This document shows positions 547 to 1,400 of a stretch of 6,176 bases of DNA, in pieces; position 1 is the stretch's first letter; every line of letters starts with the position of its first letter. The notes below the pieces were generated by a model. It was given only the letters and a program-made list of their open reading frames with translations. It was not told where the DNA came from and searched no databases. Where the stretch lies: IMG/VR virus record IMGVR_UViG_2534682092_000012; one strand, 5' to 3'. This stretch comes from a virus. Taxonomy: Duplodnaviria; Heunggongvirae; Uroviricota; Caudoviricetes. The position numbers were made by a program, and so were the translations under genes.

Positions 547-560
547 GTAACAAGAGTTAC
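547..560. promoter_or_regulatory. Putative left operator (OL-like): perfect palindrome GTAAC-AAGA-GTTAC, next to a TTGACT -35-like hexamer on the minus strand (plus coordinates 567-572)
   Basis: The 14-bp inverted repeat GTAACaagaGTTAC (extended to GGTAAC..GTTACC, 546-561) has the same half-sites as the two palindromes between the repressor and cro genes (1310-1323, 1358-1371). It lies between the repressor terminator and the start of the leftward 77-aa gene. A partial half-site copy lies at 489-502 (GTAACtcgaAGTAT). Confidence 0.5.
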
Positions 561-605
561 CTTTCGAGTCAATACGATGTTGTAAAAGGTACATTTGAGA
601 GCGTG

Positions 606-630
606 AAAAACCCGCAATGAATGCGGGTTC
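606..630 (-). terminator. Rho-independent terminator downstream of the repressor gene
   Basis: Minus-strand RNA reads CCCGCA-UUCAU-UGCGGG followed by UUUUU (plus-strand stem 611-616 and 622-627, loop 617-621; the T-run corresponds to plus A606-A610). It lies 8 nt past the repressor stop codon (635-637). The plus-strand version has only a weak U tract. Confidence 0.6.
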
Positions 631-634
631 TGAC

Positions 635-1309
635 TCAGTCTAAGTATTGATGTATTTGTGAAACTTTACCTTTAATGGTGTAACCACCATTCAGTTCGAT
701 GGGTTTGTAAAGCGGATTCAGTGACAACAGATAGATGTTTGGTCCGTCAATCGCAACTTTTTTTAGTGTTACGTTTGGCGTTCCTTCCAATTGGATTAAG
801 ATTATTTTTCCCACCAGTTCTCTAATGTTACTTGAGCATGGTGTGATCAGCACGGTAGATCCGTCGGGGATGGTTGGGAGGCCGTTAGAGTTTGTCATCG
901 CATCTCCCTCAACATGCAATAAAAAAGAGTTTTCAGCGGTTTTTGTCATGACATCAACCCAATTCTTAATGCCAGGAATCTCGGTTACTGGACAACTCAT
1001 ATCCCAATAACCAGCCTGTTCCCACGTTAAAACGGGCAACCGGGCGATGTTGTCACTAATGTAAGGATACTGATTCAGACGCAGATCATCGGTTTTATCG
1101 TGACCGTCCTTTCCATAAAGAATCCATTCAGGAGATTTGGAAAGCAATTTTGACAGTAGATGCAAATTCTCACCGTCAGGTTTTGAAGAGCCATTTTCCC
1201 ATTTTGTTACGGATACACGAGATATGCCGATTGCTTTCGCAACCTGCTGTTGGGTTAATCCAACGTCTTTTCGACGATTCCGAATACGTTCGCTGATAGT
1301 GTTTTTCAT
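635..1309 (-). CDS. cI: CI-like prophage repressor: N-terminal HTH (XRE family) and C-terminal LexA/S24-peptidase-like domain, with the catalytic Ser replaced by Ala
   Basis: The translation has an HTH (GLTQQQVAKAIGISRVSVTKWENG), a linker with a QAG motif (the Ala-Gly cleavage site in LexA/CI) and an S24 domain with VEGDAM and VTLKKV, matching lambda CI VEGNSM and FTFKKL. The start is chosen at the ATG at 1307-1309 (MKNTISERIRNRRK), which is a typical N-terminus for this family and leaves a 91-bp divergent control region. The track ORF extends to a TTG at 1408, which I consider an artefact; the ATG at 1349-1351 is a less likely alternative. Confidence 0.85.
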   Translation of the reverse strand: MKNTISERIRNRRKDVGLTQQQVAKAIGISRVSVTKWENGSSKPDGENLHLLSKLLSKSPEWILYGKDGHDKTDDLRLNQYPYISDNIARLPVLTWEQAGYWDMSCPVTEIPGIKNWVDVMTKTAENSFLLHVEGDAMTNSNGLPTIPDGSTVLITPCSSNIRELVGKIILIQLEGTPNVTLKKVAIDGPNIYLLSLNPLYKPIELNGGYTIKGKVSQIHQYLD

Positions 1310-1400
1310 GTAACCAATGTTACTACCAAGTGATGTTGCTATGGTTGACATTCCTATGTAACTATTGTTACCCTCCTGCTCGAAATAACAGGAGAGTTTT
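1310..1400. promoter_or_regulatory. Divergent repressor/cro control region (OR-like) with two perfect operator palindromes and a TTGACA -35 hexamer
   Basis: GTAACcaatGTTAC at 1310-1323 (directly abutting the repressor ATG) and GTAACtattGTTAC at 1358-1371; TTGACA at 1345-1350 on the plus strand (candidate -35 of the rightward promoter); AGGAGA RBS at 1391-1396 before the cro-like ATG at 1401. The exact -10 elements could not be assigned with confidence. Confidence 0.55.

Follow-up and report, generated by a model that had tools for sequence, protein, structure and literature searches.

The three copies of a 14-bp palindrome, GTAAC-N4-GTTAC, that flank the repressor gene in the stretch of DNA analyzed here (6,176 nt in full, hereafter the window; IMG/VR virus record IMGVR_UViG_2534682092_000012, Caudoviricetes) are, with a probability that we put at about 0.88, the operators of a lambdoid immunity switch that has the architecture of phages P22 and 21 and a different recognition sequence. 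The window is the early region of a lambdoid prophage, in which a gene for a CI-like repressor (635-1309, minus strand) and a cro gene (1401-1616, plus strand) diverge with 91 bp between them. The features that mark a lambdoid CI/Cro switch were found together: divergent genes, a repeated dyad in the right operator region (OR) lying over the putative promoters, a further copy at the left operator (OL) and leftward promoter (PL), and exchange of the whole as a module.

A first-pass annotation of the same DNA had reported three copies of the palindrome, with identical half-sites and a variable 4-bp centre. An exact search of the window for GTAACNNNNGTTAC bears this out, with matches at 547-560 (GTAACAAGAGTTAC), 1310-1323 (GTAACCAATGTTAC) and 1358-1371 (GTAACTATTGTTAC), all three with the same half-sites around different centres. 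Not one of 200 dinucleotide-preserving shuffles contained any GTAAC-N4-GTTAC, and the chance expectation for 10 fixed bases in 6.2 kb is about 0.006 matches. An unbiased repeat search recovered the left site as a perfect 20-bp palindrome, AAGGTAAC-N4-GTTACCTT, at 544-563, and the right sites as a direct repeat, ATGTAAC..GTTAC, at 1308-1323 and 1356-1371, 48 bp apart. Half-sites numbered 21 in the window versus about 12 expected, and 6 of the 21 sit in the three operators. With one mismatch allowed, the sole addition was at 4187-4200, inside the DUF1627 gene, which we take as chance because about 0.18 such sites are expected. The annotation had also called for a count of the motif across the prophage, and here too the sites stood out: in 67 kb of E. 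coli NZ_AP022105, comprising a prophage of about 47 kb at ompW with this immunity region (99.9% identical to the window) and its chromosomal flanks, these three were the only exact copies, and a single unrelated site appeared at one mismatch. The neighboring elements that it had described are likewise in place: the CAT of the repressor start (1307-1309) touches the copy at 1310-1323, TTGACA lies at 1345-1350 just upstream of the other right-hand copy, and a minus-strand TTGACT lies at 572..567 beside the left one.

The layout of these sites is conserved in 26 related loci from more than 15 genera, with repressors 43-88% identical. The loci were drawn from a genome scan (20 loci, in Arsenophonus, Yersinia, Chania, Mangrovibacter, Buttiauxella, Kluyvera, Erwinia, Rahnella, Phytobacter, Edwardsiella, Kosakonia, Pseudescherichia, Celerinatantimonas, Klebsiella and others), from three phages (Pantoea phage AH07, Pectobacterium phage ZF40 and Klebsiella ST13-OXA48phi12.2), and from three closer alleles (88%, 70% and 67% identical) and a Hamiltonella copy. 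Aligned from the repressor CAT, 26 of 27 loci including the window required no gap; the Celerinatantimonas locus is offset by 3 nt and was omitted from the 27-row column scoring. Counted from the CAT, the three right operators OR3, OR2 and OR1 fall at +4..17, +29..42 and +52..65, a -35-like element at +39..44, and a -10-like element, TAC(C/A)(T/C/A)T, at +63..68. Operator columns carry 1.5-2.0 bits of information, compared with 0.3-0.4 bits in the spacers and downstream leader. Across the loci, sites with at most one mismatch numbered 86 in the predicted 225-nt zones versus 5 in the other 113 kb.

In the window, OR3 (1310-1323; operators, the YdaT site and the cassette described below are given without strand) abuts the repressor start codon, keeps its position in 26 of 27 loci and carries 1.9 bits per half-site column. 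OR1 (1358-1371) lies within the spacer of the putative rightward promoter (PR) and overlaps its -10 element. Between them, a degenerate site at 1335-1348 (GTTGCTATGGTTGA), the right half of which overlaps the PR -35, probably corresponds to OR2, as judged from the positions in relatives and the spacing in phage 21: in all relatives OR2 keeps distances of 25 bp to OR3 and 23 bp to OR1, and relatives read GTAAC-TGTT-GTTTG there. PR as read from the sequence (1345-1374, plus strand) would comprise a -35 TTGACA at 1345-1350, an 18-nt spacer, a TG at 1366-1367 and a -10 TACCCT at 1369-1374; the positions of both hexamers are conserved across relatives, in which the -10 is TACCTT, TACATT or TACCAT. 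OR3 also holds an invariant TAACAT on the minus strand (1322..1317), 7 nt before the repressor ATG, which is a putative -10 for the repressor-maintenance promoter (PRM). Because of this placement, and because the repressor ATG has no Shine-Dalgarno sequence, the PRM transcript may start at the AUG or within 2 nt of it, as for lambda cI. Most sites are flanked as AT-GTAAC..GTTAC-AT, and the contacted operator is probably an 18-bp AT-GTAAC-N4-GTTAC-AT; this fits the contact geometry of the P22 repressor, which touches positions 2-7 and 12-17 of its 18-bp site, the central 4 bp being free of contacts (PMC4267663).

On the left side, OL1 (547-560) is the core of the extended palindrome at 544-563. 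Equivalent sites, one or two per locus, follow the repressor terminator in relatives, at 40-105 nt beyond the stop codon of the repressor in 24 of the 26, with a second site 34-35 bp from OL1 in most of them. In the window, a sequence at 579-592 (minus strand GTACCTTTTACAAC), 32 bp from OL1 and with one good half-site, ATGTACC, appears to be a decayed and weak OL2. PL, also read from the sequence (544-572, minus strand), would consist of a -35 TTGACT at 572..567, a 17-nt spacer with OL1 in it, a TG at 552..551 and a -10 TACCTT at 549..544. Its order of elements is that of PR, both in the window and in relatives: a -35, the operator, and a TG-n-TACCnT that overlaps the last 3 bases of the operator. 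The putative assignments of both promoters rest on conserved position and the TG extension. An intrinsic terminator follows the repressor gene (604-630, minus strand; hairpin 609-616/622-629 and then a T-run, -18 kcal/mol, z = -5.0) and stands between that gene and the left operator.

The repressor, 224 aa from the ATG at 1309, has HTH_3 and Peptidase_S24 domains (Pfam). The whole protein matches lambda cI (PDB 3BDN, E = 4.6e-14), and its N-terminal domain the P22 c2 DNA-binding domain (PDB 2R1J, E = 2.9e-12). Cro belongs to the P22_Cro family (Pfam E = 2.9e-16; P22 Cro, PDB 1RZS, E = 9e-12), has the helix SHVAVVRW, and is preceded by a strong Shine-Dalgarno sequence, AGGAG, at 1391-1395. The recognition helices of the two proteins change together with the DNA. 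In the family of the window the half-site is GTAAC, the repressor helix SRVSVTKWE and the Cro helix SH(P/V/A)AV(C/V/S)(R/K)W, so that the residue before the conserved Trp is K in the repressor and R or K in Cro; in mEp390 and YeP1 the half-site is GTAGG, the helices are (N/S)RVTVTGWE and SHASVSGW, and this residue is G in both; in P22 and phage 21 the half-site is TTAAG, the helices are SNVAISQWE and SDAAVSQW, and it is Q in both. Thus, wherever the half-site shifts, the residue before the Trp shifts in parallel in repressor and Cro. Within the family, RVSVTKWE is invariant in repressor homologs down to 44% identity. In the P22 c2 complex, Val33 packs on the TpA step of TTAAG (PMC5175364) and Gln37 is placed close to the inner end of that half-site (PMC5175364, PMC2995052). 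None of the three half-site classes has lost the P22-type valine or the TA step, and the half-site differences from P22 fall at the outer and inner positions. This covariation is the strongest computational evidence that the repressor and Cro would both read these sites.

Together, the conserved position in 26 relatives, the exchange of sites with their cassette and the covariation of helix and half-site agree with the first-pass proposal that the palindromes are operators of a dimeric helix-turn-helix repressor. That proposal needs two amendments. The three exact sites are not the whole operator set, as the OR2 candidate at 1335-1348 and the OL2 remnant at 579-592 had been missed. The sites had also been taken to define the probable immunity specificity of this prophage; they do appear to act as its operators, but the same half-site and an invariant helix, RVSVTKWE, are common to phages and prophages of more than 15 genera, and by this evidence the specificity is not unique to it. 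The comparison with known lambdoid immunity groups that the annotation had suggested separates GTAAC from both TTAAG (P22/21) and GTAGG (mEp390/YeP1).

The closest architectural model is that of P22 and phage 21. In the phage 21 record, with P22-type immunity, the cores of the three 18-bp OR operators begin at +6, +31 and +54 relative to the c2 ATG, and the OR cores of the window begin at +4, +29 and +52 relative to the CAT, so that OR3, OR2 and OR1 are 25 and 23 bp apart in both, with OR3 at the repressor ATG and the array of the window 2 bp nearer to it. The repressor N-terminal domains and the Cro proteins are homologous, the operator is a dyad with a 4-bp uncontacted centre in an 18-bp site (PMC4267663), the conserved valine and TpA step are shared (PMC5175364), and the OL sites are about 35 bp apart (OL1-OL2 35 bp in phage 21, 34-35 bp in the relatives). 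The sequence that defines P22/21 immunity specificity, ATTTAAG-N4-CTTAAAT, is not that of these sites: the architecture is the same and the specificity different, with GTAAC in place of TTAAG and K (R in Cro) in place of Q at the key helix position. Further, the PR -35 precedes OR2 and the -10 precedes OR1 in phage 21, whereas in the window the -35 lies over the right half of OR2 and the -10 over the end of OR1; the window keeps one good OL site where the known systems have OL1-3; its CII equivalent is YdaT and not a lambda-type CII; and the catalytic Ser of its repressor is replaced by Ala. The layout of mEp390 and YeP1 is identical without gaps (site at the ATG, 25 and 23 bp, -35 and -10 positions) and their repressors are 42% identical to that of the window, but they differ in half-site (GTAGG/CCTAC), repressor helix (RVTVTGWE) and Cro helix (SHASVSGW).

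The window also resembles lambda in having cI and cro genes that diverge, an OR of three sites with an OL at a distance, an S24 domain at the C-terminus of the repressor, and a repressor start codon without a Shine-Dalgarno sequence, like that of the leaderless lambda cI. The lambda operator, in contrast, is 17 bp long and unrelated in sequence; its repressor has an N-terminal domain of another family, which lacks the valine contact of the P22 type; the window has no rexAB; and the operator positions relative to PRM differ. With the E. coli O157:H7 cryptic prophage CP-933P, which has PaaR2, YdaS and YdaT, the window shares the ydaT module, with a YdaT site at the end of the cro-equivalent gene, and a right arm as in E. 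coli AR_0069. The CI and Cro equivalents of CP-933P, PaaR2 and YdaS, are instead unrelated cassettes with other operators (PMC8630535, PMC9986795), and the PaaR2 cassette has a toxin-antitoxin pair and no S24 domain. PaaR2 has been shown by experiment to be leaderless (PMC8630535).

The limits of the switch can be drawn from its homology break points. E. coli AR_0069 matches the window at 97.5% identity from 179 to 538 and at 99.5% from 1607 to 6176, with an unrelated repressor/cro pair between, and the homology of phage Tritos breaks at 531/532 and 1606/1607, with a different repressor/cro cassette between. From these nearly coincident break points, the three palindromes, the repressor and cro are to be read as one module at 539-1606 (OL, terminator, repressor, OR and cro), an immunity (imm) region in the classical definition. 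The AR_0069 cassette carries palindromes of its own (ATACCCATAGGTAT, TACCCATGGGTA and ACCTGTGGGTA), of the type TACCC-N4-GGGTA, at its OL- and OR-equivalent positions (640-760 and 1165-1275 in the numbering of the AR_0069 locus). The cassette region is widespread in E. coli: 702 of 5,426 complete genomes (about 13%) contain it at a query coverage of at least 80%. The whole-window mosaic was in none of these 5,426 genomes, the best matches covering 80% and having another immunity cassette. The exact repressor protein occurs on at least 1,000 contigs, including those of Shigella sonnei, and near-identical members of its cluster occur in E. albertii. When the region was compared by megablast with 50,697 phage records, only the flanks were matched, and none of these isolate phages had the exact cassette; by tblastn, no phage repressor exceeded 60% identity.

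We propose that a CI-like repressor dimer would place one helix-turn-helix on each GTAAC/GTTAC half-site and leave the central 4 bp uncontacted. Bound at OR1, it would occlude PR and turn off cro, ydaT and the replication genes; at OL1, it would occlude PL and turn off a leftward operon that starts with ydfA and, in related prophages, has ydfB, ydfC and dicB beyond. The weak OR2, lying over the PR -35, may be filled cooperatively. Through OR3, which abuts the ATG and contains the likely PRM -10, the repressor would repress its own gene, the mRNA of which would have little or no leader. Cro would occupy these same operators and tip the switch the other way. OR1 is predicted to bind most tightly, as its centre, TATT, is all A/T and those of OR3 (CAAT) and OL1 (AAGA) have one G/C each, by analogy with P22 (PMC4267663).

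Several observations weigh against this interpretation. The OR2 candidate of the window matches at only 6 of 10 bases, and OL2 has one half-site only. The PRM assignment places OR2 over the PRM -35 region, and a consensus promoter scan of 1-2100 called no promoter, because the -10 hexamers of PR and PL each match the consensus at only 3 of 6 positions. The literature that we searched contained no binding, footprint or transcription-start data for the repressor or its close relatives, and no description of these operators was found in open-access papers, those on ZF40 being concerned with Aca2. Finally, the RefSeq repressor starts at the ATG at 1351 and is 238 aa long; if that start is correct, OR3 falls inside the coding sequence, and the palindrome at 1310-1323 could have been conserved for encoding N-I-G-Y rather than as an operator. 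RefSeq/PGAP and many database entries give this longer protein, and the frame is open from 1351, yet we consider this explanation unlikely. A 224-aa version has also been deposited, and the ATG at 1351 lacks a Shine-Dalgarno sequence just as the one at 1309 does. Homologs either lack the 14-residue extension or have it in differing lengths and sequences, save for N-I-G-Y-M, in which N-I-G-Y is the OR3 palindrome translated as codons, and the palindrome is kept even where it is out of that frame, in Celerinatantimonas and a further homolog (P0009). We therefore prefer ATG 1309, since the extra residues are unconserved except for N-I-G-Y, and M15, which is invariant, corresponds to the N-terminus of P22 c2.

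It is quite improbable that the sites serve mainly as promoter elements (an extended -10, TGTTACC) or as targets of Cro only, and not as operators of the S24 repressor. The right half-site GTTAC and its flank do form TG-T-TACCnT at both PR and PL, and Cro, itself a dimeric helix-turn-helix protein, has a helix that covaries with the half-site as does that of the repressor. Both half-sites are conserved, though, and not just the one overlapping the -10, and OR3, OR2 and the OL2 of relatives keep the dyad although they lie outside the PR/PL -10 position. The repressor helix, moreover, is invariant in the family and changes exactly where the half-site changes, and in both P22 and lambda the repressor and Cro share operators. 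That the palindromes are a product of chance or a functionless relic, for example of a decayed cryptic prophage, is hardly credible. Several structural genes of the NZ_AP022105 prophage are frameshifted, and in the lineage of the window OL2 has decayed and OR2 is weak. Against this stand the shuffles, none of which produced even one copy, the perfect conservation of the sites in alleles 67-88% identical while neighboring bases diverge, the intact repressor and cro frames, and the presence of the region in 702 complete E. coli genomes. Operators of a P22/21-type switch are our preferred reading of the three palindromes.

The repressor has an additional peculiarity. Its residue 137 is Ala (minus-strand codon GCG, 899-901) in place of the S24 catalytic Ser, with the motif G-D-A-M aligned to G-N-S149-M of lambda cI. 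The Ala-Gly cleavage site (QAG, residues 98-100) and a KK pair with the Lys are kept, so that the Ser-Lys dyad typical of self-cleaving LexA/S24 repressors is broken by Ala137. Ala is found in the window, in the representative of a 499-member cluster, in one 90% allele and in one 70% Salmonella allele; Ser is present instead in one allele at 88% identity, in another at 67%, and in every distant homolog. With this substitution, the repressor has probably lost RecA-stimulated self-cleavage as a route to induction, although it retains the S24 fold. SOS boxes (CTGT-N8-ACAG) were considered as targets and rejected: the window has two matches at one mismatch, and 116 of 200 shuffles reach two; one SOS-like sequence, CTGC-N8-ACAG at 1376-1391, is not conserved in relatives. 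It is overlapped by an inverted repeat, ACCCTCCTG / CAGGAGAGT, at 1370-1397, through which the Shine-Dalgarno sequence of cro could base-pair with the region of the PR -10. The repeat is not conserved in close relatives and amounts to no more than chance.

The present results provide a concrete operator map (OL1, OR1-3, PL, PR and PRM, as proposed above) for a cassette found in about one of every eight complete E. coli genomes and located, in related prophages, upstream of the cell-division inhibitor gene dicB, and they correct a likely 14-codon over-extension of the repressor in RefSeq. They also suggest a third specificity class, K/R with GTAAC, beside those of P22 (Q with TTAAG) and mEp390 (G with GTAGG), and three classes on one rigid architecture would form a natural series for the study of specificity change in helix-turn-helix proteins. 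The Ser-to-Ala replacement suggests that the region of this prophage does not respond to SOS by repressor self-cleavage. The textbook picture of lambdoid switches is unchanged, as this appears to be an ordinary lysis/lysogeny switch with a new specificity within the known P22/21 type. We would advance a broader conjecture only tentatively, and regard it as doubtful: P22-type switches of a large class in the Enterobacterales, spanning more than 15 genera, could share GTAAC-N4-GTTAC as a fixed operator code together with a fixed recognition helix, such that an incoming phage of this class could be repressed by an unrelated resident prophage, and the prevalent E. coli/Shigella allele, cleavage-dead through Ser137Ala, could be a domesticated, SOS-blind lock that silences the toxic ydfA-dicB-ydfD operon.

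The remaining genes of the window are those of a lambdoid early region. The left arm has ydfA (DUF1391), with ydfB, ydfC, dicB and ydfD farther left in related prophages, and the right arm after cro has YdaT, an O-like gene with iterons, a DnaC-like gene, DUF1627, DUF977 and IetA. YdaT is about 97% identical to the crystallized CII equivalent of CP-933P (PDB 8BT1), the footprinted operator of which, TTGATT-N6-AATCAA, is at the end of ydaS (PMC9986795). A sequence with one mismatch to it (ATGATTCATGAAAATCAA) at 1606-1623, the cro/ydaT junction, is a probable YdaT site, and would belong to this switch without being one of the GTAAC operators; patterns of this type are not enriched across the window. 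YdaT was rejected as a binder of the GTAAC sites, given its different footprinted site and the near-match to that site elsewhere, at 1606-1623. The mosaic junction at 1606/1607 cuts the left half-site of this probable YdaT site.

Within the O-like replication gene, a run of iterons with a 15-bp period (TTGACCCGTCAA-like, at least four copies) at 2387-2476 probably marks the phage origin; another short repeat is found at 2520-2553. At the AT-rich right end of the window (5201-6176) is a gene, cut off by the window edge, for IetA, which is the AAA ATPase component of the Iet anti-phage defence system (PADLOC E = 1e-130); in AR_0069, the gene for its S8 peptidase partner comes next, and the two are called iteA and iteS there in RefSeq.

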